Numbered from the stretch's first letter, positions 28,594 through 55,470 are shown. The stretch is 64,000 bases of DNA from an uncultured Alphaproteobacteria bacterium (GCA_944389595.1 CALXMY010000002.1:150338-214337); one strand, 5' to 3'. The notes: a model not told the origin generated them from the sequence alone. Numbers and translations are program-made.

Positions 28594-28600
28594 ATATTTT

Positions 28601-34940: not shown

Positions 34941-36407
34941 TTATTTCCCCATTATTTTTGTTGGACGATTATCAACGCCGGCGAATTGCTCGATATGCTT
35001 TGCCAATTGCATCACACGCATATCATCAAATTTGCGGCCAACCGTTTGCATACCCAATGGTAACCCATTAGTGGCCAAACCCGCCGGAACACTGCATGCC
35101 GGGATGCCGGCCAGGTTCATCGCCACTGTGAATAAATCTAATGCGTAATATTCCAGGGGCGATAAATCTGAATCCAATGGCAGTGCCGTGCCCGCGCCCG
35201 CCGGGCATACAATTAAATCGCATTGTTCAAATGCGCGATCAAATGCATCGGCAATCAATCTGCGAACACGTGCGGCCTGCATAAAATAGACATCGTACGA
35301 TTCGCTGGATAAAACGGCCGTGCCAATCAGAATGCGGCGTTGGACTTCGGTTCCAAATCCCGCGGCGCGGGTTTTTTTATATGTATCAATTAAATCGGTG
35401 CCATCAACCCGCAGACCATAACGCATACCATCATAACGCGCCAGGTTGGATGAAGCCTCGGCCGGGGCAACAACATAGTATACCGCCAATGCGTCCAAAA
35501 TGTTTGGAATGGATACTTCGACAATTTCTGCGCCCAATGATTTTAAATCTGCGATGCGCGCATCAAATATTCGTTTCATATCGGGCGAAATTTCAACATT
35601 TGCAAATTCCTTTATCACACCGACGCGTAATTTTTTTCCGTCGCCCAAAATTGGTTCAAGCGGTGTATGTGCATGAAATCCGGCATCCGCGCTGGTTGAA
35701 TCCTTTGGATCATGGCCCGCCATCGCGCTTAATAATAACGCGGCATCATCAACAGTGCGTGCCACGGGGCCCGGTGTATCCAGACTGGATGCGAATGCAA
35801 CACAACCCCAACGACTGCACAGGCCATATGTTGGTTTCATACCAACCAACCCCGTTATGGATGCAGGAAAACGAATCGAACCACCCGTGTCCGTGCCCGT
35901 GCCACCCATGGCCAAACCGGATGCGACCGCACTGGTTGTGCCACCGGATGAACCACCAGCGGTTAATTTGCGTTCCAATTGCCACGGATTGACCGGTGCG
36001 CCAAAGTAACTGGTTTTACTGAATGTGCCCATGGCAAATTCGTCCAGGTTTGTTTTGCCCAACAAAACCGTGCCGGCATCGATAAATTTTTGCGAAACGG
36101 TGGATTCATATTGTGGAACAAAATTTTCCAACATATGTGATGCCGCGGTTGTACGAATACCGCGTGTTGCAAACAGATCCTTCATACCAATTGGAATACC
36201 GTCCAAAGGCAGGGGATTGCCCGCCGCATAGCGTGCGTCGGCGGCCGCTGCATCCGATAATGCACGTTCGGGTGTTAAGGTTATATAGCAATTTAATTCG
36301 GGACCATATTTTTCGATGCGTTCCAAATGTGCACGCGTCAATTCGGTTGCGCTGATGTCGCCAGATTTTAATTTTTCCAATGCTTCTGTAATTGTTAAAT
36401 CAATCAT
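34941..36407 (-). CDS. gatA: Glutamyl-tRNA(Gln) amidotransferase subunit A
   Basis: Amidase signature GGSSGGT...GTDTGGSIRFPA. Confidence 0.85.
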   Translation of the reverse strand: MIDLTITEALEKLKSGDISATELTRAHLERIEKYGPELNCYITLTPERALSDAAAADARYAAGNPLPLDGIPIGMKDLFATRGIRTTAASHMLENFVPQYESTVSQKFIDAGTVLLGKTNLDEFAMGTFSKTSYFGAPVNPWQLERKLTAGGSSGGTTSAVASGLAMGGTGTDTGGSIRFPASITGLVGMKPTYGLCSRWGCVAFASSLDTPGPVARTVDDAALLLSAMAGHDPKDSTSADAGFHAHTPLEPILGDGKKLRVGVIKEFANVEISPDMKRIFDARIADLKSLGAEIVEVSIPNILDALAVYYVVAPAEASSNLARYDGMRYGLRVDGTDLIDTYKKTRAAGFGTEVQRRILIGTAVLSSESYDVYFMQAARVRRLIADAFDRAFEQCDLIVCPAGAGTALPLDSDLSPLEYYALDLFTVAMNLAGIPACSVPAGLATNGLPLGMQTVGRKFDDMRVMQLAKHIEQFAGVDNRPTKIMGK

Positions 36408-36419
36408 TGTATTTCGCTT

Positions 36420-36827
36420 TTATTTTGTTTTTGTGTATTTGTTTGCAAAAAATTTTAATCCGATGTGTTTTATAACAAATTTATCGCGGCATGTTCCGGC
36501 AGCAATATTCTTAATACAATCCCCATAAAAACACATGGGGCTGTTTTTTAACCCAAATAATAATTCAATATATTTACCATCCGAATTTTGTGGCGTGTTT
36601 TCCTTACAATGGGGTCGGGTTAGTCTGGCTATGTTTTTGTTGTATTGATAATTGGTTTTTATATATTGAATACAACTGCTTTCTGGTATTTTTTTGCCGG
36701 CCAGTGTTTCTATGTAATCTGTGACACTTTGGGGGTCTTGTTTTATTTTGCATGACACAGGGAAGCAAATGTTACGCTCGCTCATCATATTGGTAATTGT
36801 GATGTTGGTTGTTTTTTTTGTGCCCAT
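36420..36827 (-). CDS. Cys-rich hypothetical protein inserted between gatC and gatA
   Basis: 135-aa AT-rich ORF with 9 Cys (CFPVSC, HCKEN, MCFYGDC, GTCRD); no family. Confidence 0.35.
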   Translation of the reverse strand: MGTKKTTNITITNMMSERNICFPVSCKIKQDPQSVTDYIETLAGKKIPESSCIQYIKTNYQYNKNIARLTRPHCKENTPQNSDGKYIELLFGLKNSPMCFYGDCIKNIAAGTCRDKFVIKHIGLKFFANKYTKTK

Positions 36828-39712: not shown

Positions 39713-40405
39713 TTATTTTATCATAACTTTGCCATGTGATAAAGTTGTTATATTTGTTGGATGAACTAAATCCGTAAAGTTTTTTTGATGGCTGATGAAT
39801 AAAAATGTTGTATTTGGCATTTCACGCATAGCTTCAACGATTTGGTTTTGTGTTGCGGCATCTGCGCCGGAATCCGGTTCGTCCAAAATTGCCAATTTCG
39901 GTTCCGTCATAATCAGCCGCAATAACATCAGGCGTTTTCGTTCCCCACCGGAAAATCCAACGTTAATGCCGCGATTCAGCCATTCTTTTGGTATATCTAA
40001 TTTTTCACGTACTGATTCCAATTTGGTTAAAAATTCCCCCATTGATAAATCGCGACCGGTATTAAAATGTTGATGTGCAACCATGGAATGTTTTAAAAAA
40101 CTGAGTACGGTTAATCCCGGAATTTCCGGAACATTTTGTGCCCCCAGAAATATTCCCATCAATGCACGTGTGGTTATATTTTCATGCGTTATATCGCGGC
40201 CATCAAATATAATTTGTCCCGCATCCACCGTATATTCGGAATTTCCCGCAATTGTACCAACCAATGTGGATTTCCCAGAACCGTTATGGCCCGACAGTAA
40301 ATGTCGTGCACCATGTGAAACAGTCATATTTATATCATCCAGCAATTTTTTGCCGTCCAATGATACGGATAAATTTTTTATTTCCAAAATATTTGTTTTT
40401 TTCAT
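39713..40405 (-). CDS. sufC: Fe-S cluster assembly ATPase SufC
   Basis: Walker A GHNGSGKST, ABC signature FSGGERKR, Walker B ILDEPDSG. Confidence 0.8.
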   Translation of the reverse strand: MKKTNILEIKNLSVSLDGKKLLDDINMTVSHGARHLLSGHNGSGKSTLVGTIAGNSEYTVDAGQIIFDGRDITHENITTRALMGIFLGAQNVPEIPGLTVLSFLKHSMVAHQHFNTGRDLSMGEFLTKLESVREKLDIPKEWLNRGINVGFSGGERKRLMLLRLIMTEPKLAILDEPDSGADAATQNQIVEAMREMPNTTFLFISHQKNFTDLVHPTNITTLSHGKVMIK

Positions 40406-41739
40406 TTTCGTTCCAATGCCATTTGAATTAATTGTTTCGATTCCACCAAAAATTCCATTGGTAATCGCGATATTACGGGGGCCGCCGTGGCACCAATTAT
40501 TAATGCAGTGGCCGTATCTTCGTCAATACCCGATTGCATTAAAAATTGCAGTTGGCGCGCATCGATTGCACCGGTTGTTGCCTCGTGACTTTGCAGATTT
40601 TCGCCGTTTCCGTGTACAATTGTTGGAATTGTGTTTGCGGTTGCATTGTTGCCAATTAAGCGGGTGTCGCATTTTGACGCATTTTTTCCGCCACGGCCGG
40701 TAAAACTGACCAAACTGCGAAATGTTTGGCGCGATGTGTCCGTTGCCACGCCATATGATACAATGTTTGATACCGTGTTATTGCCAATGTGAATCATTTT
40801 TGTTCCGGTATCGGCCTGTTGCCCGCCACGTGTTATTGACAGTGAATAAAAATCTGATGCCGCCCCATCACCCGCCAGAATTGTTGATGGATATTTCCAT
40901 GTCATTGCAGAACCGATTTCAACCTGGGTCCAATCCAGTCGGGCATTTTTATCGCAACGCCCACGTTTGGTTACAAAATTTAATATGCCACCAGTTGATG
41001 CATTTTTTTTATTATTGGTCCAGTTGCCGGCGTACCAATTTTGTACGGTTGCATATTTTACGTATGCGTCGTCATGTGCGATAATTTCCACAACACCACT
41101 GTGTAATTGGTGATTTGGGCGACGTGGCGCACTGCAGCCCTCCATATAACTTAATTCGGCACCCGTATCAGCAATTATTAATGTGCGTTCAAATTGTCCG
41201 ATTTTTGCGGTTTCGATTCTGAAATAACTGGCCAAATCAATTGGGCATTTGGTGTGTGGTGGAATATATACAAATGTACCGTCTGAAAATACCGCAGCAT
41301 TTAATGCGGCAAAAAAATTATCTGTGGCCGGGACAACAGTGCCCAAATATTTTTTTACCAAATCAGGATGTATTTTTACCGCATCGGAAAATGGTAAAAA
41401 TATTATTCCCAATTTGTTCAATGTGTCTGTATATGATGTATGAACAGAACGACTGTCAATTACGGTATCTGTTGCCATACCCAACAGGGCGTTTTGTTCA
41501 TTTTTGGGCAAACCCATTTTTTCATATGTTGCCCGCAAGTCTGAATTATCAATTGGCTTTGGTTCGTTATAATAATTTAATTCATCATAATTAATTGGGG
41601 CATAATCAATTTCGGCCCAATGTGGTTCGTGCATTTTTTGCCATGCACGTAATGCGGCAATTCGCCAATCCAGCAACCAATTTGGTTCGCCACGCATATT
41701 TGATATTTCACAGACAAGTTTTTCAGATAATTTTGCCAT
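40402..41739 (-). CDS. sufB: Fe-S cluster assembly protein SufB
   Basis: SufB/SufD beta-helix family with C-terminal ...PMEFLVESKQLIQMALE; located immediately upstream of sufC. Confidence 0.7.
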   Translation of the reverse strand: MAKLSEKLVCEISNMRGEPNWLLDWRIAALRAWQKMHEPHWAEIDYAPINYDELNYYNEPKPIDNSDLRATYEKMGLPKNEQNALLGMATDTVIDSRSVHTSYTDTLNKLGIIFLPFSDAVKIHPDLVKKYLGTVVPATDNFFAALNAAVFSDGTFVYIPPHTKCPIDLASYFRIETAKIGQFERTLIIADTGAELSYMEGCSAPRRPNHQLHSGVVEIIAHDDAYVKYATVQNWYAGNWTNNKKNASTGGILNFVTKRGRCDKNARLDWTQVEIGSAMTWKYPSTILAGDGAASDFYSLSITRGGQQADTGTKMIHIGNNTVSNIVSYGVATDTSRQTFRSLVSFTGRGGKNASKCDTRLIGNNATANTIPTIVHGNGENLQSHEATTGAIDARQLQFLMQSGIDEDTATALIIGATAAPVISRLPMEFLVESKQLIQMALERK

Positions 41740-42291: not shown

Positions 42292-42474
42292 AAAAACACC
42301 CCGTAATTTATTTTGTTATCGTTTTAGTATAGCATTTTTTAGCGATTCGTGCGATTTTATCTTTTGCATAAATTTTGTTAAAAAATCTGATGCGTTTTAG
42401 TCTTGCACAGATTCGGTCAAGTTGTTATAATAATACATAATAATATGATAACGCGTTCAGGAAAGGAAGTTTTT

Positions 42475-43557
42475 ATGTTCCGTAAATTTTTAATTGTTGC
42501 AATGTTGGCAACCGCTGCGGGCTATTGTTTCGCGGCTGAAAATCCACCCCAGGTTGTGACATCAGAAGTTTTTTATTCACAGCAACCGGTACAAACGGAT
42601 GCACAAAGTGCGCAGACATCGGATGAAAATGCCGCACAGCAAATTCCAGTGTGGCCGATTGCGGGCACCGATGCGGACATCGAAATTGCGTACGAGGGTA
42701 ATCCTTTGTCCGCCAGTGACAAGGACAATATTCGCATTGTGTCGAAAATAGGTGCCGATTTGGTTGTTGAAAATAATTTTAATTTAGGGTCCACGGCGGA
42801 CGGTGATTTTAATGGTTGGTCTGGGGGGGCAAATATGTTGCATGGTTCCCAGGTGCCGGCCGGATTTGATGACCCGTGCAACAGTGGAACTGAAATGCCG
42901 TTGCTGTCGCGTGAAATGTTGGAGGATGATGGCGGTTCGGTTTTGTCTGTTGCGCGCAGCAGTCGCCAGGATTGCAATAAATATCGCAATGGGTACGAGG
43001 CGTTTATGGCAAAAATCGGTATGAGCAAAGAGGAAATTGCCGCCGCAAACGATGCAAATACCAGTGTTTATATTGATTCCGATGGTAATACGGTGGAATT
43101 GGTCAGTGAAAAATATTATTTGAATACTGATGGAAATGTGGTTGACCGTGAAACAGATGAAGTGCAATTGGCATTATATGTTGATAATGATGGAAATGTG
43201 GTCGATCGCGTGACCGGGAATATTGTTGACAGAACAACGGCAAATATGGAAATTGCTGTGGATGTTAATGCGGACGAAGAGGCCCCAACCATTGTTTTAG
43301 ACCAGGTGCGTTCGTGGGTTGTTGCCAGTGGCCAAACTTTGCGCCAGGTTTTACAAGATTGGTGTAATAAAGAAGGATGGGATTTGGTTTGGGCGACATC
43401 ACGCGAATACCCAATAGAGGCCAGTGCCGTATTCAAGGGACGTTTTGTTGATGTGGCATCTGCGCTGGTGCGTAATTTTGCGCGCGCAACACCGATACCA
43501 TATGCTAAATTTTATAAGGGTAATCGTGTTTTGGTGATTTCAACAACCGAAGAATAA
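42475..43557 (+). CDS. Secreted protein, possible TcpQ/PilL-like secretin partner (tentative)
   Basis: Signal peptide MFRKFLIVAMLATAAGYCFAA; C-terminal domain TIVLDQVRSWVVASGQTLRQVLQDWCNKEGWDLVW... ; immediately upstream of lipoprotein secretin; RBS aggaaggaag. Confidence 0.35.
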   Translation: MFRKFLIVAMLATAAGYCFAAENPPQVVTSEVFYSQQPVQTDAQSAQTSDENAAQQIPVWPIAGTDADIEIAYEGNPLSASDKDNIRIVSKIGADLVVENNFNLGSTADGDFNGWSGGANMLHGSQVPAGFDDPCNSGTEMPLLSREMLEDDGGSVLSVARSSRQDCNKYRNGYEAFMAKIGMSKEEIAAANDANTSVYIDSDGNTVELVSEKYYLNTDGNVVDRETDEVQLALYVDNDGNVVDRVTGNIVDRTTANMEIAVDVNADEEAPTIVLDQVRSWVVASGQTLRQVLQDWCNKEGWDLVWATSREYPIEASAVFKGRFVDVASALVRNFARATPIPYAKFYKGNRVLVISTTEE

Positions 43558-43584
43558 TTACTCTTGCCGTAGGAGAAAAGAAGT

Positions 43585-45213
43585 ATGACCAACCCGATAA
43601 AATATTTTGTTATGTGTGCAATAATGGGGCTGAGTGTCGCGGGGTGCACAACAAAAGAATCTGCCAAGGTTGCGGCATCTGTTGACCAGGATTTTATTAA
43701 TGCATATGATGCGTTTGAAATGTCAAAAAATCCGCCGGCCAAGGTCGCCAGTGGTGATACTGTTACCATGTCCGAAGGTGTGTGGTTGGGTGCGTCGTCA
43801 ACGTTATTGGAACATCGTAATAATTTGCCGTCACAATTTGAATCCAATACCGGGATTACAATATTATTAAATGAACCGGTAACATTACAGGCATTGGCAA
43901 ACGATATTACGTCAATTACCAAAATTCCGGTAAAAATTGATAATCAAATTAATTCTGAAAAATTAAGAAAAACAATAAATGTTGCATATACAGGCAGCTT
44001 ATCAGGGTTGTTATCGCAAATCGCAACTGATTTAGATTTATTATGGTATTACGATAAATCCGCAATCGTTTTTTATGAAACAGAAACCAGAACGTTTACA
44101 TTATATGCATTGGGGACGGATGTTTCGTATCAAACCGCGGTTGAAACAGACGATGGAAATACAGTGTCGTTGGAATCCACATTAAAGGAATGGGATGAAA
44201 TTGAAAACGCGTTGGGTACCATCATCGGAAATGTTGATAATGCTAATTTTACAGTGTCGCGCAGTTTGGGGACAATTACTGTTACCGCGCCACCATCAAC
44301 ATTGGCACGTGTCGAAGATTATATTGCACGTCAAAATAGACGGTTGTCGCAATTGGTGACAATTGATGTAAAGGTTTTACAGGTGTCTGTATCCAATGAT
44401 TCGGCATTTGGATTGAATTTGGCGGCCGCGATTAATTCTGCGTCGGGGTTAAATATTGTTGCAAATCCGAAAAATAATTTAAGCAACACAGATGCCAGTT
44501 CAATGAATATTGCGGTTCTGTCAAATACGGTATCTGCGATGACGGGTGCCACGCACCAAGAAGGCAACAGCACTGTTTCAGGGGCATATACCCAGGATCA
44601 AATTAAAAATGGTTCGTTGTCTGGATTGGCGGGCACGGATGCATTGATTCAGGCACTGGCCAAGCAGGGCAAAGTGTCGTTGGTTACAAATGTTGGTGTT
44701 ACAACACGAAACAATCGGGTTGCGCCGGTAAATAATACGCGTACAACGGGGTATATCAAACGTTTTGAATCGCGTAACTTTACAACTGTGGAATCCAGCA
44801 CTGTTGACCAGGATGATTTGGAAACCGGTTTTTCAATGCAGCTGCTGCCCAATGTTTTGGAAAACGGCAAAATATTGTTGTTGTTCAGAATGTCGGTGCG
44901 TGAATTGCTGCGTATGCAGACACAAACAATTGGCGAAGTTACATTGCAATTGCCCGAGGTTGAAGAGCGCAGTTTCATGCAGGAAGTTATAATGGAATCC
45001 GGACAAATGTTGGTTGTTTCTGGTTTTGAAAAACAGGAAAACAACGACACGCGTTATGGATTGGGTGATCCGGACTTTATGGCGTTGTCTGGGTCGCGTG
45101 AAACATCGGCCACGCGTGATGTGTTGGTGGTTATATTGACACCCCAGGTATTGGTCAGTCCAATGGATGCAGAACGCACAATACAACAACATTGGGGGGC
45201 ACCGCTGAATTAA
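43585..45213 (+). CDS. Lipoprotein secretin (type IVb pilus / BfpB-TcpC-PilN-like)
   Basis: Lipobox LSVAGCTT; C-terminal secretin domain ...SGQMLVVSGFEKQENNDTRYGLGDPDFMALSGSRETSATRDVLVVILTPQVL (cf. DGqtvvlGGL..d...VPiLGDIP.LG.LF......ELLIFiTP.IV). Confidence 0.6.
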   Translation: MTNPIKYFVMCAIMGLSVAGCTTKESAKVAASVDQDFINAYDAFEMSKNPPAKVASGDTVTMSEGVWLGASSTLLEHRNNLPSQFESNTGITILLNEPVTLQALANDITSITKIPVKIDNQINSEKLRKTINVAYTGSLSGLLSQIATDLDLLWYYDKSAIVFYETETRTFTLYALGTDVSYQTAVETDDGNTVSLESTLKEWDEIENALGTIIGNVDNANFTVSRSLGTITVTAPPSTLARVEDYIARQNRRLSQLVTIDVKVLQVSVSNDSAFGLNLAAAINSASGLNIVANPKNNLSNTDASSMNIAVLSNTVSAMTGATHQEGNSTVSGAYTQDQIKNGSLSGLAGTDALIQALAKQGKVSLVTNVGVTTRNNRVAPVNNTRTTGYIKRFESRNFTTVESSTVDQDDLETGFSMQLLPNVLENGKILLLFRMSVRELLRMQTQTIGEVTLQLPEVEERSFMQEVIMESGQMLVVSGFEKQENNDTRYGLGDPDFMALSGSRETSATRDVLVVILTPQVLVSPMDAERTIQQHWGAPLN

Positions 45214-45245
45214 AAATCGCCCAGTTGGGCGATTTTAATTTTGTA
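45214..45245 (+). terminator. Terminator after secretin gene
   Basis: atcgcccagttgggcgat followed by tttaatttt. Confidence 0.55.
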
Positions 45246-45249
45246 TACG

Positions 45250-45290
45250 TAAAATACCGCCCAAATGGGCGGCGATTTTTTTCAGAATTC
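45250..45290 (-). terminator. Terminator after rpsT (minus strand)
   Basis: ccgcccatttgggcgg followed by T-run on minus strand. Confidence 0.55.
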
Positions 45291-45301
45291 TGAAAACGTA
45301 A

Positions 45302-45562
45302 TTATGCCATTTTGGCAACACGTTTGGTCAGACGAGAAATCTTGCGCGAGGCACGTTTTTTCGGCATAATTTTGCCCGCAGATTTCATTATACGACTTTC
45401 GGCATTACGCAGTGCCGTTGTTGCGGCCGCTTTGTCACCAGATTCGACAGCCACCAAAACCTTTTTCGCAGCGGTTTTCATTGTGCTGCGACGTGCGTTG
45501 TTAACGGCGTTTTTCTTTGCCGTTACCAGAATTCTTTTTTTAGACGATTTGTGATTTGCCAC
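45302..45562 (-). CDS. rpsT: 30S ribosomal protein S20
   Basis: MANHKSSKKRILVTAKKNAVNNARRSTMKT... Confidence 0.85.
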   Translation of the reverse strand: MANHKSSKKRILVTAKKNAVNNARRSTMKTAAKKVLVAVESGDKAAATTALRNAESRIMKSAGKIMPKKRASRKISRLTKRVAKMA

Positions 45563-45635
45563 TTTATTTTCCTTTTATTTGGTCACATTTTTTGTTATTT
45601 TATAGAAAACAAACATAAAATCAAGGAAAAATAAA

Positions 45636-46244
45636 ATGATGACAATATCTGATGGTTGGATTGCGGTGTTAACAATCGTGGTCGCGTACTTGTTGGGTTC
45701 AATTCCAATGGGATTAATTTTAACAAAAATCACGGGGCGGGGCGATTTGCGCCGTGTGGGCAGTGGCAATATCGGCGCAACGAATGTTTTGCGCGTTGGT
45801 GGGCTGCGTTTGGCGGCAATTACGTGGATTTTGGATATGACCAAGGCGATAATTGCGGTTTTAATTGGCGCAAATGTTGGTGGGGCGATATTTGGCGCAT
45901 GGTGTGGATTTGCGGCAATTGTTGGACATTGTTACCCAATATGGTTGGGCTTTCGTGGTGGCAAGGGGATTTCTTCGTTATTTGGGGTGTTGTTAATTAC
46001 ATCGCCATTGGCATTTATAACGTGCGGGGTTGAATGGCTGATTGTGGCGTTGACATCTGGTTATTCGTCATTGGGGGCGGTTGTTGCGTTTTGTTTAATG
46101 CCAATTTTGGGATTTGTAATAGATATTAATATGGGGTGGCCATTTTTGGCAATTGCGTTGCTGTGCCTGTGGCGACATCGTGGGAATATTAAACGGTTGC
46201 TTGACGGGACAGAATCGAAAATAGAATGGAAGTGGAAGAAGTGA
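45636..46244 (+). CDS. plsY: Glycerol-3-phosphate acyltransferase PlsY
   Basis: GSGNIGATNVLR and CYPIWLGFRGGKG motifs. Confidence 0.85.
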   Translation: MMTISDGWIAVLTIVVAYLLGSIPMGLILTKITGRGDLRRVGSGNIGATNVLRVGGLRLAAITWILDMTKAIIAVLIGANVGGAIFGAWCGFAAIVGHCYPIWLGFRGGKGISSLFGVLLITSPLAFITCGVEWLIVALTSGYSSLGAVVAFCLMPILGFVIDINMGWPFLAIALLCLWRHRGNIKRLLDGTESKIEWKWKK

Positions 46245-46338
46245 AAAAGAAAGATATATTTTTTTATTATATGTATTTAGTCTTTATTTCTTGGGTATTT
46301 TATGGTATAATGCGAAAAAGAAAATCAGGGAAAGAGAG

Positions 46339-47235
46339 ATGAAAAAATTACTGTCATTTTTTGCAATATTAATGGTTGCATCGCCCGCATTGGCAATGAA
46401 TGTGACGAATCAGGCACGGCGTTCTGTGGCGGCACAAATGGTGGCCCCGGCACCACGTGCAACCGCGTCAACAAATCAGATTACGGCCATGGCCAATGCA
46501 AATGCACCGGCCGGCAGTGCGGTTGTTGATATGTCCAGTATTCGTGTGCCGGTTGGTAATGGAACGGTTGATAATAATAATGGTGGTGATGGCGGCGATA
46601 ATAACCAGGGCGGTAATGGTGGCAATAATAATGAAAAGCCAGAGTGGCAAAAGCAAAAGGAAATTTGTCTGAATAATAATATCGGCGTGGGAAATACATA
46701 TGTTTGGGCTTCGCGGTACAGTAATACAAATAATTATGCATCAATGGTAGAGGATGTAAATAACCCTGAAAATAATGTTTGTTTTGTGTTGGTGGAAATT
46801 AAATCGGCCGACCCCAGAATAAGTGTATCTGATGTGCCGGATAAATATTTCCAAATGGGGCAAAACATAACATGTGGCAGCTGGGCCGATGCGGATGTAT
46901 TGCGTCAACGTATTTTGGACGCAAAAAAATCAGGGCGCACATGGGCAACCGTTGGTGGTGCGGTTGGCGGTGCCGGTTTGGGTGTCGGTATGATGGAATT
47001 ATTTGGTAACAGTTTAATTGGTGGTTCGGTTGAGGGGCAAAAGGCTTTATCTGGTGATGCGCAGTTAATGGCACAATTGCGTGCATTGAAAAATAAAAAT
47101 TCTGCGGAATTTGATCAGTTTATCAAGGCATTGCGCACATTAAGGACGGAATGCAACAAGGATATATGGCAATCAGACATGCCCGCCGAATGCACTCAAT
47201 ATAATTATGAATATTTGCTGAATGCGGCAAATTAG
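46339..47235 (+). CDS. Secreted Gly/Asn-rich hypothetical protein
   Basis: Signal peptide MKKLLSFFAILMVASPALA; low-complexity NNNGGDGGDNNQGGNGGNNN; Cys pairs. Confidence 0.5.
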   Translation: MKKLLSFFAILMVASPALAMNVTNQARRSVAAQMVAPAPRATASTNQITAMANANAPAGSAVVDMSSIRVPVGNGTVDNNNGGDGGDNNQGGNGGNNNEKPEWQKQKEICLNNNIGVGNTYVWASRYSNTNNYASMVEDVNNPENNVCFVLVEIKSADPRISVSDVPDKYFQMGQNITCGSWADADVLRQRILDAKKSGRTWATVGGAVGGAGLGVGMMELFGNSLIGGSVEGQKALSGDAQLMAQLRALKNKNSAEFDQFIKALRTLRTECNKDIWQSDMPAECTQYNYEYLLNAAN

Positions 47236-47261
47236 TTCGTAAATTATAATAACTTTTTATC

Positions 47262-47290
47262 CCGCGAAAAAAATCGCGGGATTTTTGTTT
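47262..47290 (+). terminator. Rho-independent terminator
   Basis: cccgcgaaaaaaatcgcggg followed by atttttgttt. Confidence 0.6.
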
Positions 47291-47324
47291 GAATTAGATG
47301 TGATAATTCATTTATAGTACAAAC

Positions 47325-48353
47325 ATGACAGATAATGATTTATTTAAACGGTTATTGATTTTGCGTACGCCCGGTGTTGGGCCGGTGCGGTATCGTGAAT
47401 TAATCAAACAGTTTGGTGGTGTGGATGCGGCCGCCGATGCGGTTGAACAAAGCGATTCGATTCGTGATGCTGTTTTACGTGAAATTGAAAATGCCAAAAA
47501 ATTGAATGTATATTATATATGTGATGATATGCCCGAATATCCAATCCAATTGCGGAAATTAAAAAATCATCCGCCGGTGTTAAGTGTTCGTGGAAATATT
47601 ACAACTTTGTCACGACCAACGGTTGGAATCGTGGGCACGCGTCATGCAACAGCGGCGGGAATGGGGTTTGTGGCCGAATTGGCACAAAAATTTGCCGAAC
47701 ATAATATTGTGGTGGCATCTGGGATGGCGATGGGCACCGATACCGCGGCGCATCGTGGTGCGTTGCGGGCCAATGGTGAAAATCAAACAATTGCCATATT
47801 GGCGGGCGGGGTTGATTCAATATGGCCATTGGAAAACGAATCGCTGTATTGGGAAATTATTGCGCGTGGCGCGGTTATCAGTGAAATGCCGGTTGGGTTT
47901 GCGCCAATGGCACAAAATTTTGTTCAACGTAATCGATTAATCGCCGGAATCAGCGAAAAATTAATATTGGGCGAGGCTGATTTAAAATCGGGCAGTATGA
48001 CAACCGTGCGATTCGCAATACAGGCAAATCGGGAAATATGGGCAATACCGTCGCATCCGTCGGATTCCCGGGCCGCGGGGCCAAATTCATTGATAAAATC
48101 GGGCGCGGCAAGGTTGTGCAGTGGACAAAGTGATTTTTTTAAAAATGAAAAAAAGACATTCATAAATGTTAAAAATGAAAAAAATTTCGATTCGGAAAAT
48201 CCGATATTGGATGCATTAGGAATGATTCCTGTGTCTGAATCTGTATTGTCAGAAATTGTCAAAAAAACGATTTCGGAAATAAAGTCTGAATTGGTTGTTT
48301 TGGAATTACAGGGATTGGTGCGAAAAGTTGACGGTGGTTATGTTCGCGTGTGA
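47325..48353 (+). CDS. dprA: DNA processing protein DprA (Smf)
   Basis: Rossmann-like core VVASGMAMGTDTAAHRGAL ... ILGEADLKSGSMTTVRFA. Confidence 0.75.
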   Translation: MTDNDLFKRLLILRTPGVGPVRYRELIKQFGGVDAAADAVEQSDSIRDAVLREIENAKKLNVYYICDDMPEYPIQLRKLKNHPPVLSVRGNITTLSRPTVGIVGTRHATAAGMGFVAELAQKFAEHNIVVASGMAMGTDTAAHRGALRANGENQTIAILAGGVDSIWPLENESLYWEIIARGAVISEMPVGFAPMAQNFVQRNRLIAGISEKLILGEADLKSGSMTTVRFAIQANREIWAIPSHPSDSRAAGPNSLIKSGAARLCSGQSDFFKNEKKTFINVKNEKNFDSENPILDALGMIPVSESVLSEIVKKTISEIKSELVVLELQGLVRKVDGGYVRV

Positions 48354-48789
48354 AAAAAATCTTGTCTATACATTGTATATACAACGCGCGGAAATCCGGC
48401 AAAAAAACGAATCGTTGTCAAAAAATAAATGTTGAAAAATTGTTTAACAAACTGTTGCAATGTCGAATTAATCTTATAACTTATCTGACGTATCCAAACG
48501 ATTGAGAGTTAATCCCAATCAAAATAAACAGGCGGGTGACATAAAATAATTTTCGTGTTACCCCGGCGCACAGAGAGAGATGATAAATTGCGGTGTCGAT
48601 TTATAACAGCAGTGTGATAAATCAACATGCCAATTTATAAAAGGGCGCAAAAGAGAGAGTTAAATGTAGGGCATAACATAAATACTAAATTTTTATGTAA
48701 CAGTAAAATTTAGCGTTTATGTGCGGGTGGTTTTTATACCCCTGGGGGCATGTGAAACCCTTTGTCAAAGGAAGGAAAGGAGGAAAAAC
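48354..48789. promoter_or_regulatory. Candidate oriC / dnaA upstream control region (tentative)
   Basis: 436-nt non-coding AT-rich region directly upstream of dnaA with weak DnaA-box-like 9-mers (tgtgataaa approx 48613, ttatctgac approx 48481, gatgataaa approx 48580). Confidence 0.3.
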
Positions 48790-50076
48790 ATGATGCAGAC
48801 AGCGGCAATAAAAACAATGGTGGATTTGAATCAAGTCAAGGGGGCCATTGCCGCAAAAATGGATTCTGCTGGGTTTACATCATGGATTGCGCCGTTACAG
48901 TTTGATGTTTGTGATGATACATTGGTTTTAACCGCACAAAATCAATTTTCTGCTGATTTTATTGGGGCTGTTCATAAAAACGTTTTAACGGATGTGGCAA
49001 ATCAATTTGGTTTGGGTTTAAAAATTGCGGTGCGTGGTACGGCTGTGTCAGCATCGGTTGCGAACGACAATAATATTCAATCATATACACCGGCGACGGA
49101 AACAAATACGCACACAAACACATTAAACGCATTTGATTCATTTGTATGTTGTGATGAAAATGCATTTGTGTTGTCGGCATGTAAAAAAATAGCGGCGGGG
49201 ACGGTTTCGTTTTCGCCACTGTTTATTTATGGTGTGGCGGGGTGCGGAAAATCGTTGTTGATGGATTGCATTGAAAATGCCGCCGCGGGGCGTGTAATAA
49301 AAATGTCGGGGGGACAGTTTGTTTCCGAATTTACGCGTGCATTGCATGATCGCACAATTTTCGCATTCAAGGATTTTTGTCGCAATTGTGACACATTTAT
49401 ATTGGATGATGTTCAATCATTGGCGGGCAAGCGGGCAACATGTGCGGAATTTGCACAATTGGTTATGGATTTGCGTGCGGCGGGTAAAAATGTTGTTTTA
49501 ACCGCAAATGTGGCACCGGGTAATTTGAACGGATTTGATCGCCGTACACAATCATTATTGGCATCGGGGTTGGTTGCCGATGTTATGGGGCCGAATGAAA
49601 ATGTGCGTCGTGTTATGTTGATGCGCGCGGGCGTTTCGGCAAATACTGCGGCGGAAATTGCATCGCATATTTCGGGCGATGGGCATTTGGTTGCGGGTGT
49701 TGCAATGAAAATTAAAACATATGCCGAATTAATGGGTGAAAATGTAACAATGGATGTTGCACAGCATTTATTATCAGATACATTGCAAAAATCAAAAACA
49801 CCGATTGCAATGGTTAAAATGATGTGTGAAAAATTGGGTGTGGCGTATGATGCGGTATGTGGTCGCGGGCGCAGTCGGGCAATTGTATTGGCGCGCCAGA
49901 TTATGATGGTGGTGTTGAAAAGTGCGACAAATTTGTCATTAAGTGAAATTGGGTGCGTATGCGGGGATCGTGATCATGCAACAGTGGTGTATGCAATTGC
50001 ACAAATTGAAAAATTAAAAAAGTCTGATTTGGTTTTGGCGGCGCAAATTAATCAATTGATTGCGGAATGCAAATAA
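48790..50076 (+). CDS. dnaA: Chromosomal replication initiator protein DnaA
   Basis: AAA+ box FIYGVAGCGKSLL; domain IV GRGRSRAIVLARQIMMVVLKSATNLSLSEIGCVCGDRDHATVVYA. Confidence 0.85.
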   Translation: MMQTAAIKTMVDLNQVKGAIAAKMDSAGFTSWIAPLQFDVCDDTLVLTAQNQFSADFIGAVHKNVLTDVANQFGLGLKIAVRGTAVSASVANDNNIQSYTPATETNTHTNTLNAFDSFVCCDENAFVLSACKKIAAGTVSFSPLFIYGVAGCGKSLLMDCIENAAAGRVIKMSGGQFVSEFTRALHDRTIFAFKDFCRNCDTFILDDVQSLAGKRATCAEFAQLVMDLRAAGKNVVLTANVAPGNLNGFDRRTQSLLASGLVADVMGPNENVRRVMLMRAGVSANTAAEIASHISGDGHLVAGVAMKIKTYAELMGENVTMDVAQHLLSDTLQKSKTPIAMVKMMCEKLGVAYDAVCGRGRSRAIVLARQIMMVVLKSATNLSLSEIGCVCGDRDHATVVYAIAQIEKLKKSDLVLAAQINQLIAECK

Positions 50077-50082
50077 TAATAT

Positions 50083-50108
50083 GCCACAAAATGTGGCACT
50101 TTTTTTTA
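50083..50108 (+). terminator. Rho-independent terminator after dnaA
   Basis: gccacaaaatgtggc followed by acttttttttatt. Confidence 0.65.
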
Positions 50109-50229
50109 TTTATGATGAAAATTCATTATTGGAATGATAATTAAAATATGATAAAATGCAGTATAATGAATGTAGTTTTATTATGCGAAAATAAATTTTG
50201 TTATTTTCGTCATAAAATGGGGGATAAAT

Positions 50230-51552
50230 ATGAAAAAGTTATTTTTAATTGTGACGGCATTTTGTGGAATATGCTTGTTTTCTGGACACGGCATGGCCAA
50301 CGTGGGTTGTGTGCCGACCAGTTGCGATGAAAGTATGGGGGACGACAGGTTAAATGCAAGTACGTTGGAGATTTCTGGCAAGGCCAGAAGACAGGCGGGT
50401 TCATGCTTTATCTGTGAACCCGGTTTTTGCGAAGATGGTGATATTGTTTATACCGCCGATTTTTCAAAATTTGCAGTTTGCAGACAGTCGCATGGGTGGG
50501 TTGGCAATGATCGCTGGCTGGAATTTACGCCAAAGCATTGCGCACTTGAAGAAGATTTAACCGCTGCATATAATCGTGGTAATACGAATGGTTTACACAA
50601 ACGCTGGAAGGTTAATGGTGTTGAATATGGGGAAACACAAGATACATTGAATAATTCCACAACGACAAGGGCCGGACAAGATATATGTTATTATTATACG
50701 TGTCCAGATGGCATGACATATAATGTAGAAAAAATGCAATGTGTTAGTGATGAACCGGAAACAGTAGTTGTTGTGCCAGTAGAGGCGACAACACCACCGG
50801 CACAAACAACAGTTACGCCACCGGCAAATACCACAACGCCCGGCACCAGCAGTAATTGCGAGGCCAGATGCAAGGGCATGACCGGGGAAAGACGTTCGCA
50901 GTGTGTTACATGTTGTGCCGTGTCGCGAAGTGTTGCGGAATGGCGGGATCCAAAATGTGTATGTGTTGACAATACCAAGGTGTGGGATGTGGAAACTGCG
51001 CAATGTGTGACACCAACGCCAACACAACCAACCCAACCGGTTCAACCAGTTGCGGATTATGAATGTTCGGCCAGTATGATTAGCCAATTAAATGTGTGGA
51101 TTGATAATTACCCGGATTGTGTTGTGCAAATAAATAATTTGATTGAATATTGTGATTCCGACCCACAGGCATCAGAAGCAAACAGTATATATGCACAAAT
51201 ACAACAATGTGTAAATAATGCCCAGGCCGCAGCAGAAGCAGCCCAGGCAACCGCTTTGTTGCAATCACAAAATGCATCGCGCCAAAATATTACAAGTGCG
51301 ATTTCAACATTGGATGGAATTAAATCTGGATTGAAAGTGACCGTGTGGCGTGACGAAGAAGGTAAATTTAATACATCACGTTTGCTGTCTGATTCCATTG
51401 CGGGTGTGGTTTTGGGAACCGCCGGCGGATTGATTACCAGTAATGTTGTAAAGAAAAATCAGGTCGAAGACGGATTCGAAGATTTACAATGCGCCATCGG
51501 TGGCCAGGCTGTGGCCGGATGGGGCGACGAGTTCCGCGTCGGTATCCAATAG
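50230..51552 (+). CDS. Secreted Cys-rich protein with Thr/Pro-rich linkers, hypothetical
   Basis: Signal peptide MKKLFLIVTAFCGICLFSGHGMA; >30 Cys; TTPPAQTTVTPPANTTTPG and TPTPTQPTQPVQP linkers. Confidence 0.5.
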   Translation: MKKLFLIVTAFCGICLFSGHGMANVGCVPTSCDESMGDDRLNASTLEISGKARRQAGSCFICEPGFCEDGDIVYTADFSKFAVCRQSHGWVGNDRWLEFTPKHCALEEDLTAAYNRGNTNGLHKRWKVNGVEYGETQDTLNNSTTTRAGQDICYYYTCPDGMTYNVEKMQCVSDEPETVVVVPVEATTPPAQTTVTPPANTTTPGTSSNCEARCKGMTGERRSQCVTCCAVSRSVAEWRDPKCVCVDNTKVWDVETAQCVTPTPTQPTQPVQPVADYECSASMISQLNVWIDNYPDCVVQINNLIEYCDSDPQASEANSIYAQIQQCVNNAQAAAEAAQATALLQSQNASRQNITSAISTLDGIKSGLKVTVWRDEEGKFNTSRLLSDSIAGVVLGTAGGLITSNVVKKNQVEDGFEDLQCAIGGQAVAGWGDEFRVGIQ

Positions 51553-51576
51553 AGAGAGTAAGATGGGGAAAACAAA

Positions 51577-51598
51577 AACACCGGCATATGCCGGTGTT
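51577..51598. terminator. Bidirectional terminator hairpin
   Basis: aacaccggcatatgccggtgtt between convergent genes. Confidence 0.6.
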
Positions 51599-51604
51599 TG
51601 TTCA

Positions 51605-52087
51605 TTAGTGTTGATTTTCGTTGATTTTATCAATGAATTTTTGACGAATTGCCATTTGCCGTTTAAAGTCACGGCGTGTGGCATGATTCATGCGTGATAT
51701 AAAATCCGGATCCATTGGGTTATGAACAACGCGATTTGTCGGAAATAACAGTGCAACCGTTTCGCGGGTATCCTTGTCCAGATATTCAACAATTGTGCGC
51801 GCCAATTTTTCGCCCATAACCGGTTTAAATATTTTAAATGAACATGCCATTTTGTATGCGGCCGGGTTTGGAAAATCCAGCCGCATTAAACCATTTGTTT
51901 GTCCGACAACAGGTTCGCCATTTATTGTTTCGATTATAAATGGTGTTGAACGCTGTGATTCATAATAAAATGCGCTGCCCGGGATTTTTACAACATATGT
52001 GTTTTTATCTTTCTTGCCTATGACAGGATTTTTTTTGTTGCTATCATTCATATCATGTGTCCTTTGTTCTGTTATAAAATAATACAA
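51605..52087 (-). CDS. Hypothetical protein
   Basis: 160-aa ORF (possible start at internal Met); no family assignment. Confidence 0.4.
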   Translation of the reverse strand: MYYFITEQRTHDMNDSNKKNPVIGKKDKNTYVVKIPGSAFYYESQRSTPFIIETINGEPVVGQTNGLMRLDFPNPAAYKMACSFKIFKPVMGEKLARTIVEYLDKDTRETVALLFPTNRVVHNPMDPDFISRMNHATRRDFKRQMAIRQKFIDKINENQH

Positions 52088-52161
52088 AAATTATAATTGT
52101 CAAGTTGCATTGTGTGTATAATTAACATGTTGGTAAAATTAAAATTATCATAACGGGTTAT

Positions 52162-54141
52162 TTATACGAATAAATCCTTTACAAATTGGGCATGTTCGGT
52201 GATGAATTTAAAACGAAATTCCGGTTTTTTACCCATTAATTCGGAAACAATTGTGCGGGTTTTTTCCGTATCTTCGGCACCGTCGTCCGTGCGCGGGGGT
52301 AATTCAACGCGTATTAATCGCCGCGTTTTTGGCGACATGGTTGTTTCCTTTAATTGATTTGGCATCATTTCACCCAGGCCCTTGAATCGTGAAATTTCAA
52401 CCTTTTTATTTTTATATTTTGTGGATTTTAATTGTTCCAATTCTTCGTCCGTATCGACATATACCGATTCGGTGCCGCATGTTAATTTATACAGTGGCGG
52501 ACACGACAGGTATAAATGGCCGCCATAGATTAACTGGGGCATAACCTGGTAAAAAAACGCCATTAATAATGATGCGATATGGCTGCCGTCGACATCGGCA
52601 TCGGTCATAACAATAATTTTTTCATAACGCAGTTTTGATTCGTCCCAATCACGTGCCGTGCCGGCACCAATGATATCAATTAATTCGTTTAATTCCTTGT
52701 TCGCGCTGAAACGTTCGTCGGAATTGGAAATAACATTTAACACCTTGCCGCGCAGGGGCATGATTGCCTGGGTCGCGCGGTCGCGTGCCTGTTTGGCGGT
52801 GCCGCCGGCCGATTCGCCCTCTACAATAAACAATTCGGTGCCGTCCACGCCATGTTTTGAACAATCCGCCAATTTGGCCGGCATGCGAATACGCTTGGTC
52901 GGGGTTTTGCGGGCAATTTCCTTGACCTGTTTGGTTTTTATGCGGGCGTTTGCCAAATTTATTACAAATTCCAATACGGCGTTTGCCGTTTTGGGATCAG
53001 ATGCCAAAAATATTTCCCACGGATCGCGCAGCGCGTTTTCCGTATAGCGCGCAATTTCGGGGTTTGACAGTTTTTCCTTGGTCTGGCCCAAAAATTGCGG
53101 TGTTTTATAAAATACGGATACAATCGCCGCAACGGAATCGAACACATCATCGCTGATTATATTGGCGGCGGATTTATTATTTATTTTATCGCCATATGAT
53201 TTTATTCCACGGGTAATCGCGGATTTAAAACCCGTTTCATGTGTGCCGCCATCAACAGTTGCAATGGTGTTGCAATATGATGCAAAGAATCCGTCATCGG
53301 ATGCCGCGCCATTTTCATCTGTTAAAAATGTTAATGCCCATTCAACACGGCCTGATGAATCCGGGAAATCAACCGTGCCACTGAAAATTTTTGGCAAGAT
53401 GCGCGGTTTGTCGCGGGTGCGTTCATCCAAAAAATCCGCCACGCCATTTGGGTAATAAAAATCTGTTTGCGCGGGAATATTCATATCGTCGGTTAATAAT
53501 TCCGGATTACAAATCCATTTTACGCGCACGCCGCGTGACAAAAATGATTTAGCACGCGCCATGCGATAAATTTTAACCGGTTTGAATACCGCGTTTATGC
53601 CGAATATTTCATCGTCCAATGTGAAACGAATTTTTGTGCCATGATTTTTTGTTGCATCCCCACGGGTCATACAACTGGTTGGTTTGCCGCGCGAAAAAGT
53701 TTGCCGCCATTCGTAACCATCGCGGGAAATTGTTACAATCATTTCAGATGACAGGGCGTTTACAACCGAACTGCCCACACCGTGCAGACCACCACTGGTT
53801 TTATACACATTATTATTAAATTTGCCACCGGAATGCAGTGTGGTTAAAATAACCTCCAGCGCGGATTTGCCGGGGAATTTCGGATGTTCATCAACCGGAA
53901 TGCCGCGACCATCATCGGTAATTTCAATTGTTTTGGCATCAATCAGGTTCACGGTGATATTTTTAGCATAGCCGGCAACAGCCTCGTCAATGGAATTGTC
54001 CAAAATTTCCACCGGTAAATGATGCCATGCCTTTTCATCTGTGCCGCCAATGTACATCCCAGGGCGCAGGCGAACCGGTTCCAGCCCTTCGAGTACCTGG
54101 ATATCTGATGCGTCATATGTATGTGTATTTTGTTCAGTCAT
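52162..54141 (-). CDS. parE: Type IIA topoisomerase B subunit, probably topoisomerase IV ParE (659 aa; lacks GyrB-specific insertion)
   Basis: GHKL ATPase N-terminus, EGDSAGG (EGESAGGT), Toprim PLRGK, DVDGSHI; length fits ParE rather than proteobacterial GyrB. Confidence 0.65.
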   Translation of the reverse strand: MTEQNTHTYDASDIQVLEGLEPVRLRPGMYIGGTDEKAWHHLPVEILDNSIDEAVAGYAKNITVNLIDAKTIEITDDGRGIPVDEHPKFPGKSALEVILTTLHSGGKFNNNVYKTSGGLHGVGSSVVNALSSEMIVTISRDGYEWRQTFSRGKPTSCMTRGDATKNHGTKIRFTLDDEIFGINAVFKPVKIYRMARAKSFLSRGVRVKWICNPELLTDDMNIPAQTDFYYPNGVADFLDERTRDKPRILPKIFSGTVDFPDSSGRVEWALTFLTDENGAASDDGFFASYCNTIATVDGGTHETGFKSAITRGIKSYGDKINNKSAANIISDDVFDSVAAIVSVFYKTPQFLGQTKEKLSNPEIARYTENALRDPWEIFLASDPKTANAVLEFVINLANARIKTKQVKEIARKTPTKRIRMPAKLADCSKHGVDGTELFIVEGESAGGTAKQARDRATQAIMPLRGKVLNVISNSDERFSANKELNELIDIIGAGTARDWDESKLRYEKIIVMTDADVDGSHIASLLMAFFYQVMPQLIYGGHLYLSCPPLYKLTCGTESVYVDTDEELEQLKSTKYKNKKVEISRFKGLGEMMPNQLKETTMSPKTRRLIRVELPPRTDDGAEDTEKTRTIVSELMGKKPEFRFKFITEHAQFVKDLFV

Positions 54142-54253
54142 AGCATAATATTATTAATACATTTCGAAAATTCTTGCAAGTGCTTTAAATCATCTTGATT
54201 TTTTTACAGTTATACTTATATATTTTGGGACAAGATAATTTTGGGACAGAAAA

Positions 54254-55384
54254 ATGAATAAAAATCCATATGAAGTTTTGGGCGTTGCACGAAATGCGTC
54301 GGATGATGAAATTAAAAAGGCTTACCATAAATTGGTGATGAAATATCATCCTGATCGAAATCCGGGTGACAAGGATGCCGAAGAAAAGTTTAAGGAAGTA
54401 AATAACGCGTTTGATATATTAAAAGATCCGCAAAAGCGGGCTGCGTATGACAGATTCGGTGATGCCGCGTTTGCCGGTGGAAATGCATCGGGGGCAAATC
54501 CCTTTGGGGCCGGTGGAAATCCATTTGGGGATGGCGCGTTCCATTTCAATATGGGCGGCGGTGCCGGAATGGACGATATCTTGCGCGAGGCAATGCGCGG
54601 ATTCGGTTTTGATATGGGCGGCGGGGATGCCCGTCGGAATGCCCAACGCCGTGGTCGCGATTTGTTGGATGATGTAACAATTGATTTGCGCGATGCGTAT
54701 TTTGGAACAACACATACAGTAAAATTTACAACAAATGTTGAATGTGAAAAATGCCACGGTTTTGGTACCGATGATGGCAAAGAGGCACCCGCGTGTCCGC
54801 GTTGTCATGGTTCGGGCTATGTGCGCACATCGCGTGGTTTCTTTGCAATGGAAACACCGTGTCCGGACTGTAATGGTTTGGGGCGCAAGATTGATAAAAA
54901 ATGTACCCAGTGTGATGGGGCGGGCGTGTTGCGGAAAACACGTACGTTGGATGTGAAAATTCCCGCCGGAATCGAAGATGGGGCGCGTCTGCGATTGGCC
55001 GGCCAGGGCGAGGCCGGGCAAAATGGTGCGCCGGCGGGCGATTTATATATAGATATTCATATCCGTCCGGATAAACATTTTATGCGTAATGGTGCAGATT
55101 TAATAACGCGCGCAGATGTGCCGTTTACTACATTGGCATTGGGTGGCGAAATTGAAATTGATACAATTGACGATAAGAAATTATCGGTCAAGGTTCCGGC
55201 CGGTACACAGGTTGGTGAAAAACTGCGCGTACGTGGGCATGGAATGCCAGGGCGGCGTGCGGGAACATTTGGTGATTTGTATATTGAAATAAATATGCCG
55301 GTGCCAACAAAATTAACAGATAAACAGAAAAAAATTCTGGCCGAATTTGCGGGCACAAAAAGTACCAAGAAAGGATGGTTTTAA
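54254..55384 (+). CDS. dnaJ: Molecular chaperone DnaJ
   Basis: J-domain with HPD (YHPDRNP), G/F-rich region, four CxxCxGxG zinc-finger repeats. Confidence 0.9.
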
Positions 55385-55470
55385 AAATTGCGCTGGATGC
55401 ATGAAATACTGCATACAGCGCATTTTTTTTGTAATAAAAAATCCCGCCATTTTGACGGGATTTTTATATG

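Follow-up and report, generated by a model that had tools for sequence, protein, structure and literature searches.

A TcpQ-like protein and a lipoprotein secretin as the probable outer-membrane module of a dispersed type IVb pilus in Candidatus Enterousia

In the 64,000-nucleotide stretch of DNA analyzed here (hereafter the window; CALXMY010000002.1:150338-214337 of GCA_944389595.1, from an uncultured Alphaproteobacteria bacterium), two adjacent plus-strand genes at 42475-43557 and 43585-45213 encode a predicted secreted protein with a TcpQ-like domain and a predicted lipoprotein secretin, respectively. We propose, with a probability of about 0.8, that this pair specifies the outer-membrane part of a chromosomally encoded PilN/BfpB/TcpC-class type IVb pilus whose genes are dispersed in Candidatus Enterousia. 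As comparison with relatives shows, the remainder of the machine (i.e., the predicted PilO, PilP, GspE/PilB-family ATPase and GspF/PilC-type platform protein) is in these relatives encoded elsewhere as a separate four-gene block. All positions are those of the whole window, and the open reading frames (ORFs) called and the motifs quoted in an earlier reading of this DNA (hereafter the sequence-only reading) were all found in the sequence.

Outer-Membrane Genes and Pilin Gene of the Window

The 542-amino-acid product of 43585-45213, whose gene has its own ribosome-binding site, is predicted to be a type IVb-class (BfpB/TcpC/PilN) lipoprotein secretin. Residues 357-523 matched the Pfam Secretin family (PF00263; E 5.2e-14, 52.6 bits, cut-off 27.5), and the best NCBIfam model for the protein was TIGR02520 (PilN type IVB secretin), with 243 bits. 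In a HMMER sequence comparison to PDB, the protein matched BfpB (9u5s_A) with an E-value of 5.4e-38. Its lipobox reads GLSVAG/C21 (the slash marks the predicted cleavage), and Cys21 was invariant in the alignments of 19 and of 36 relatives. In an AlphaFold2 model with a mean predicted local distance difference test score (pLDDT) of 68, the N0 domain, the N3 domain and the secretin barrel were modeled confidently. When this model was used in Foldseek, the top PDB match was again BfpB (9u5s_A; E 2.1e-31), followed among secretins by InvG (E 5.7e-18). The predicted layout thus consists of the lipidation site Cys21, an LG region that includes residues 58-73, N0 (residues ~88-175), N3 (residues ~200-270) and the secretin domain (residues 357-523). 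Only 19 residues follow the secretin domain, where the model has a single short helix (residues 527-535), and the protein therefore has no S domain. Type IVb pili are distinguished by secretins that are lipoproteins, and these lack the S domain, having an N-terminal LG region instead (PMC12531336). Residues 290-346, which are relevant to the third N3 barrel of BfpB, were unaligned to BfpB and had pLDDT <50.

In BfpB, the stretch beta1-linker-beta2 of the LG region is bound by BfpG, and mutational data show that I46, Y47 and I48 matter in this stretch (PMC12531336). The HMMER alignment placed D58-T73 of the window secretin (DTVTMSEGVWLGASST; 43756..43803, plus strand) on D38-F53 of this BfpG-binding region, with V66-W67-L68-G69 opposite I46-Y47-I48-G49 of BfpB, which makes D58-T73 the putative partner-binding stretch. 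L68, G69 and S72 were invariant in 19 secretin relatives, down to 31% identity, and W67 and G69 were nearly invariant in 36. The pLDDT was <50 at residues 49-77, which cover this stretch, in the model of the monomer.

The preceding gene (42475-43557, plus strand), which has an AGGA-type ribosome-binding site, encodes 360 amino acids that begin with a signal peptide (residues 1-20; MFRKFLIVAMLATAAGYCFA followed by AE) ending in CFA/AE without a lipobox. Residues 279-356 (43309..43542, plus strand) matched Pfam TcpQ (PF10671; E 4.8e-18, 65.5 bits, cut-off 27) over positions 1-78 of the 80 in the profile. The same region matched BfpG (9u5s chain R), to which it was aligned over BfpG residues 27-111, with an E-value of 1.9e-14, or 8e-19 when a profile of 17 orthologues was used. 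The protein is thus a predicted secreted member of the TcpQ/BfpG family of secretin partners, and its N0-like TcpQ domain is the part that, by analogy with BfpG, should bind the secretin. The secretin and TcpQ assignments agree with those of the sequence-only reading, which had identified a type IVb-class lipoprotein secretin preceded by a secreted protein with a possibly TcpQ/PilL-like C-terminus, and both profiles scored above their cut-offs.

An alignment of the 17 orthologues revealed a signal peptide, a conserved middle module, a variable linker and the C-terminal TcpQ domain. The middle module (residues ~58-165; 42646-42969, plus strand; WP.AGSDAD...NIRIVSKIGADLVVENNFNLG...GWSGGANMLHG...EMPLL.REMLEDDGG) was kept across Enterousia and partly in the outgroup. 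It matched no family or solved structure, and BfpG and TcpQ have no equivalent module; the linker likewise had no family match. No NCBIfam family, and hence no PilL model, matched the protein at E <= 0.01. The window protein is longer than its orthologues (360 vs. ~303 amino acids) and carries a linker insertion of ~57 amino acids (residues ~197-253; 43063..43233, plus strand) with three D-x-DGN-x-V repeats that was found in none of the 16 other aligned orthologues. A weak Pfam FliC match of this insertion was judged to be spurious.

The two genes are separated by 27 nt. A promoter-like site (TGCACA, a 16-nt spacer and TG-TATAAT; 42404..42431, plus strand) lies ~45 nt 5' of the tcpQ-like start codon, and the interval from the stop codon of the secretin to the convergent rpsT contains two terminator-like stem-loops (45213-45236 and 45257-45272); these are consensus matches only, the promoter-like site scoring 10/12 with an extended -10 in the consensus scan. 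Because such a site stands upstream of the gene pair and such hairpins downstream, the two genes look like a self-contained bicistronic operon.

A third gene (57592-58056, plus strand; 154 amino acids) lies 12.4 kb from the secretin gene, between uvrC (56116-57576, minus strand) and an RluA-family pseudouridine synthase gene. As the sequence-only reading had proposed for this solitary gene, its product is, by its predicted features, a real type IV pilin. It has the class III signal MKYESG/RSMIE-MMGVLAIMGVITVAAIAAI, with an unusually short leader of 6 residues, predicted cleavage at G6/R7 (57592-57630), Gly at -1, Glu at +5 and a hydrophobic helix. The N-terminus ESG/RSMIEM was kept in both orthologues read (loci L092 and L056). 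The protein has two cysteines, Cys111 and Cys139, and its similarity to TcpA reaches the head domain but is weak (Pfam TcpA, E 0.027; PDB TcpA 8uhf, E 0.025), the head motif FVVSITGLSQSDC being aligned to FAISVDGLTQAQC of TcpA around the first cysteine. Such a TcpA-like head fits a type IVb machine, and the protein is presumed to be the major subunit of the same pilus. In 6 Enterousia loci, orthologues with 51-66% identity to the window pilin were found beside uvrC. Local rearrangements between species alter the spacing of the secretin and pilin genes, which is 12.4 kb in the window but 2.7 kb in locus L056 and 24 kb in GCA_045635705.1. The motif scan of all ORFs revealed no further pilin-like ORF in the window. 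The matches obtained for these three gene products are far beyond chance.

Distribution of the Inner-Membrane Genes

Consistent with the sequence-only reading, which had noted no adjacent ATPase, platform protein or prepilin peptidase, none of these was seen in the window among translated ORFs with 110 or more amino acids, part of which were covered by the Pfam scan. In a search of 1.84 billion cluster representatives, the Enterousia secretins formed one 50% cluster, with the next relatives ~42% identical; a second, word-indexed protein search returned intermediate relatives 59-79% identical to the window secretin. Two outgroup alphaproteobacterial metagenome-assembled genomes (MAGs), GCA_016735395.1 (L087) and GCA_031549365.1 (L089), whose secretins are 41 and 64% identical to that of the window, respectively, contained a contiguous operon of tcpQ, secretin, pilO (PF06864), a pilP-like gene, a T2SSE ATPase gene and a T2SSF platform gene. 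The same six-gene order was found in the PilN cluster of the Methylovorus plasmid pMsip01, where the genes for the major pilin, PilM and PilV come next. PilN proteins of this kind, to which the window secretin is 25-30% identical, were matched on 2,930 plasmids. With the outgroup ATPase as a query, thousands of proteins with 72-76% identity were found.

Within Enterousia, contig JAZTWE010000001.1 of the MAG GCA_045635705.1 carried both the ATPase and a secretin 84% identical to that of the window. The secretin pair, the pilO-pilP-ATPase-platform block and the pilin gene were located on one strand of this contig within 37 kb, in a stretch merged from two pieces whose 3,713-bp overlap is exact. 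In the coordinates of this stretch, the secretin is at 10001-11620, pilO starts at 25976, the ATPase is at 27908-29539 and the pilin is at 35992-36456, such that the motor block sits between the secretin and the pilin. The ATPase matched T2SSE and GspE/PilB models and the platform protein matched T2SSF, while PilO matched PAP_PilO weakly and PilP scored 34.5 bits with TIGR03021, whose cut-off is 34.65. In another 80 metagenome loci, one of them a 935-kb contig, the four genes formed a separate block, and this block was usually between lpxK-lpxC and gyrB in the loci inspected. All four were present in order in 76 of the 95 ATPase-bearing loci.

These results suggest that an ancestral single operon, tcpQ-secretin-pilO-pilP-ATPase-platform, was split in Enterousia into the outer-membrane pair and the inner-membrane block, with the pilin gene standing alone. 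Of the alternatives offered by the sequence-only reading, a dispersed system is the one favored by these results. At the level of the lineage the term orphan does not fit, given that relatives have the cognate genes for PilO, PilP, ATPase and platform protein, contiguous with the secretin in the outgroup MAGs and on the same contig as the secretin and pilin in GCA_045635705.1. The pair also does not consist of simple paralogues of a complete locus elsewhere: no second secretin was seen, and what lies elsewhere is the rest of the same machine and not a second copy.

Two observations were made beside the motor block. Homologues of VirB3 and VirB4 were found ~5-8 kb upstream of the pilO block in the 935-kb Enterousia-like contig (L112 56-2770), and these tiny genomes therefore also retain a type IV secretion system, at least in part. 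In another locus, a small SNase-like secreted protein (L092 6386-6796; Pfam SNase, 16.9 bits, cut-off 21) is encoded 1.3 kb upstream of pilO.

Host Lineage and Sequence Constraint

The window lineage is, by its closest matches, Candidatus Enterousia of the GTDB order Rs-D84, an alphaproteobacterium from the gut whose genome is ~0.9 Mb. A scan of species-representative genomes with an alignment of 5 secretin sequences returned 442 relatives, and the best 80 of these, all Enterousia, were taken. They were 82-93% identical and came from gut MAGs throughout, including one circular chromosome of 958,618 bp; they are labeled Candidatus Enterousia, uncultured Alphaproteobacteria or proteobacterium, or Rickettsiales, and one is mislabeled as Bacteroides fragilis. 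The genomes of Rs-D84, including Enterousia, are ~0.75-1.0 Mb and encode no flagella, no standard transporters for sugars, amino acids or peptides and no nucleotide biosynthesis, and an obligate symbiotic or parasitic lifestyle was proposed for them (PMC12306168). In the same study, type IV pili were reported only for another lineage, UBA9783, and not for Rs-D84 (PMC12306168).

The local gene order sufB-hyp181-tcpQ-secretin-(rpsT)-plsY-hyp-dprA-dnaA was kept in the relatives examined. The tcpQ-secretin pair was found between sufB and rpsT-plsY in six close relatives, a termite-gut MAG (L091) and four contigs with an identical secretin, and its adjacency was also kept in the outgroup operons. 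The partner had tblastn matches in 91 of 91 loci, including the 80 species-representative genomes, and the exact window secretin sequence occurred in 129 blocks of a public contig collection.

We compared nonsynonymous divergence (dN) and the ratio of nonsynonymous to synonymous differences (pN/pS) with those of neighboring genes, including sufB (40402-41739), rpsT (45302-45562) and dnaA (48787-50076), in a subset of up to 35 orthologous loci. Given that synonymous sites were near saturation (pS ~0.65), relative dN and pN/pS were used and not absolute dN/dS. The secretin (dN 0.064, pN/pS 0.09) was the slowest-evolving protein among the neighborhood genes compared, which included rpsT (dN 0.119), sufB (dN 0.124), dnaA (dN 0.157) and plsY (dN 0.173). 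The channel is thus under stronger constraint than its housekeeping neighbors. Within the partner, the TcpQ domain (dN 0.055) and the N-terminal part (dN 0.247) were analyzed separately; the pilin had a dN of 0.293.

Around these conserved genes, species differ by rearrangement of the segment that separates the secretin from pgsA-uvrC-pilin (window 45214-55470 vs. L056 11630-14368 and L072+L092). We also noticed a family of cysteine-rich, secreted and highly variable proteins (window 50230-51552; L001 11685-13463; L002 11836-13364), which looks like a variable surface-protein family. Its members share a C-terminal tail of ~88 amino acids with a hydrophobic segment and ...GFEDLQCAIGGQAVAGWGDEF.VG.Q, and have no Pfam match. 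One copy is usually located after dnaA; up to three are found in one human-gut species, one of them directly 3' of the secretin, and the secretin-adjacent copy in L002 is split by a frameshift. The idea that this protein is a secretin substrate was rejected, given the usual position of its gene after dnaA and given that only L001-L006 and L038 have a copy next to the secretin.

Elsewhere in the window, 1177-3108 encodes a 643-amino-acid protein with a phage-lysozyme-like domain followed by tetratricopeptide repeats, which could be a cell-wall remodeling enzyme; no link of this protein to a pilus was established. Predicted secreted or surface proteins without a family match are encoded at 16169-17805, 30200-31765 and 46291-47235, and the C-terminal part of the 521-amino-acid protein at 30200-31765 resembles an outer-membrane beta-barrel, as judged by eye. 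Such proteins fit the many unassigned membrane proteins reported for the order Rs-D84.

Evaluation of the Proposed System and Its Alternatives

Several observations weigh against a dispersed type IVb pilus in the window's species. The secretin score with TIGR02520 is below the equivalog cut-off of 287.65 bits; the outgroup secretins likewise score only 232-237 bits, and the lineage is therefore best regarded as a divergent branch and not as an equivalog. With its extra N-terminal modules, the partner is ~3 times the size of BfpG and TcpQ and is not the small single-domain protein that the 114-amino-acid partner chain of 9u5s represents. Type IV pilins normally have a hydrophobic residue at +1, while the window pilin has Arg there, and its Pfam N_methyl score (17.6 bits) is below the cut-off of 21.2. 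The pilO-pilP-ATPase-platform block was not found within the 64-kb window, and in the 80 metagenome loci the 10 kb around the ATPase contained no orthologue of any of the 57 window proteins, the sole match being a gyrB/parE paralogue with 38% identity. In addition, two ATPase clusters share no contig or assembly with the secretin loci, which leaves the motor block unlinked to the window's species; its presence in that species is what we infer from the genus. A prepilin peptidase was not found by tblastn in ~190 loci with a PilD query, nor was a minor pilin or a retraction ATPase seen in the loci examined, which are parts of genomes.

One alternative concerns the role of the pilus and not its machinery. 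A type IVb pilus that serves mainly in DNA uptake, for competence or nucleotide scavenging, is rather unlikely in our view, although dprA lies 2 kb downstream of the secretin in a neighborhood kept in Enterousia and the related loci examined, Rs-D84 lacks nucleotide biosynthesis (PMC12306168) and the SNase-like gene stands near pilO in one species. The outgroup operons are not beside dprA, and the adjacency is therefore probably the result of rearrangement and is given low weight. Moreover, dprA is known to be near-universal in bacteria, the SNase match is below its cut-off, and neither ComEA, ComEC nor a retraction ATPase was seen in the loci examined. The known Gram-negative uptake pili are generally type IVa pili with PilQ-type secretins (an example is given in PMC7545093). 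The likeness of the genes to plasmid clusters raises the further question of whether they are the thin-pilus module of an integrated conjugative element (R64/PAPI-1 PilN-like) working with a VirB-type type IV secretion system. For this speak the outgroup gene order, which matches a conjugative plasmid cluster exactly, the prediction that 2,475 of the 2,930 PilN-matched plasmid records are conjugative, and the VirB3 and VirB4 homologues near pilO on one contig. We nevertheless consider it improbable. The genes stand amid housekeeping genes (sufBC, rpsT, plsY and dnaA for the pair; lpxC and gyrB for the motor block) at positions conserved across the species examined, which points to long vertical inheritance. 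The GC content of the 2-kb bins over the operon (0.411-0.436) is unremarkable within the window range of 0.377-0.479, identity to the plasmid proteins is only 25-30%, and no relaxase, integrase or shufflon was seen nearby.

Two further alternatives would deny the pair a pilus. It could be a true orphan in the window's species, kept as a general conduit through the outer membrane or because it exports surface proteins, as would be compatible with the lack of motor genes within 64 kb, with a motor block that could not be linked to this species and with the cysteine-rich surface-protein gene directly 3' of the secretin in one relative. The motor block is, however, widespread in the genus, a type IVb-like pilin gene that is conserved is present in the window itself, constraint is strong on both the TcpQ domain and the partner-binding stretch, and the cysteine-rich genes normally follow dnaA, so that such an orphan is quite improbable. 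The co-option for another export function that the sequence-only reading had considered likewise has no evidence pointing to it. That reading had also allowed for a degenerate system. In a strongly reduced genome (~0.9 Mb), and with the genes apart from the rest of the system, the pair might indeed be the decaying remnant of a lost pilus; but decay is excluded for practical purposes because the secretin dN is below that of its housekeeping neighbors sufB, rpsT, plsY and dnaA. The frames are intact in the orthologues examined, the 17 tcpQ orthologues align over their full length and most secretin matches span residues 1-542. The occurrence of an identical secretin in 129 public contig blocks and the ribosome-binding sites, promoter-like site and terminator-like hairpins in place also argue against a remnant, which we regard as scarcely credible.

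Proposed Function and Significance

We therefore favor the dispersed type IVb pilus, for which the BfpB-BfpG pair suggests a mechanism. By analogy with that pair, the secretin would be lipidated at Cys21 and reach the outer membrane without a pilotin, and the TcpQ domain of the partner would clamp the beta-linker-beta stretch of the secretin LG region (residues 58-73), resulting in a ring around the multimeric channel. The fibre formed by the pilin of 57592-58056 would then pass through this channel. The stoichiometry of the complex and the biological role of the pilus are both what we infer from the genes and from known systems. The most likely role, proposed more tentatively than the machinery itself and by analogy, is attachment to the surface of a partner or host, because Enterousia is without most biosynthetic pathways and is thought to depend on partner cells; DNA uptake comes second. 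A stronger version of this idea, possible though we would not count on it, is that the Rs-D84 pilus is a key organelle of a partner-dependent life that attaches to a bacterium, protist or host, possibly together with a VirB system or DNA uptake, and that the enlarged TcpQ partner and the pilin with Arg at +1 are lineage-specific adaptations.

Enterousia is a widespread uncultured gut bacterium of humans, ruminants and poultry that was proposed to live off other cells (PMC12306168). A complete-looking type IVb pilus in Rs-D84 would be a concrete candidate for the attachment to such partners or for the uptake of material. For pilus biology there is little that is new in kind, i.e., a chromosomal and scattered PilN/BfpB machine with a larger partner and an atypical residue at the pilin cleavage site. 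The modest interest of the system rests on its host organism and on the strong conservation of its channel.

Comparison with Known Systems

Saccharibacteria offer a parallel in lifestyle: as described in one report, these reduced-genome, partner-dependent bacteria keep type IV pili that are likely attachment organelles (PMC11623550). The analogy is limited to lifestyle, and the systems are non-homologous at the level of the outer membrane. Neither an outer membrane nor secretins are known from Saccharibacteria.

The toxin co-regulated pilus of Vibrio cholerae (TcpC-TcpQ/TcpA) also has a lipoprotein secretin, and the TcpA-like head motif of the window pilin is found at its first cysteine. The order of the tcp operon is Q then C, as in the window pair. 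The leader of TcpA is long and is followed by Met at +1; that of the window pilin has 6 residues and precedes Arg at +1, and the similarity between the two proteins is weak (E 0.025-0.027).

The thin pili of the PilN type (IncI R64 and PAPI-1/PFGI-1-type elements) also resemble the predicted Enterousia system. TIGR02520 is the best model for the secretin, the set of PilO (PF06864), PilP (TIGR03021), ATPase and platform protein is the same, and the outgroup order tcpQ-pilN-pilO-pilP-ATPase-platform is that of pMsip01. The window secretin is, however, below the equivalog cut-off and only 25-30% identical to PilN proteins, and the window partner, unlike R64-type PilL, is not a lipoprotein and matched no NCBIfam model. 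Neither a PilV adhesin or shufflon nor genes for PilM, PilT/PilU or conjugation were seen next to the Enterousia genes, which are vertically inherited among housekeeping genes and are split across loci.

The closest comparison is with BfpB-BfpG of the bundle-forming pilus of enteropathogenic Escherichia coli (EPEC; 9u5s). The two systems differ in several respects. Identity over the Foldseek structural alignment is 22%, and the partner has 360 amino acids with two extra N-terminal modules vs. 114 amino acids in 9u5s. The bfp genes form one 14-gene plasmid operon, in contrast to the chromosomal genes apart from the rest of the machine found here. The 17-mer ring and the third barrel from N3 are, so far, features described for BfpB. 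Nevertheless, both have a lipoprotein secretin predicted or known to consist of LG, N0, N3 and secretin domains without an S domain, and in both an N0-like TcpQ partner is encoded directly upstream of the secretin. Consistent with these similarities, the partner-binding stretch reads V-W-L-G in the window secretin and I-Y-I-G in BfpB, and BfpB is the top match of the window secretin in both sequence and fold.

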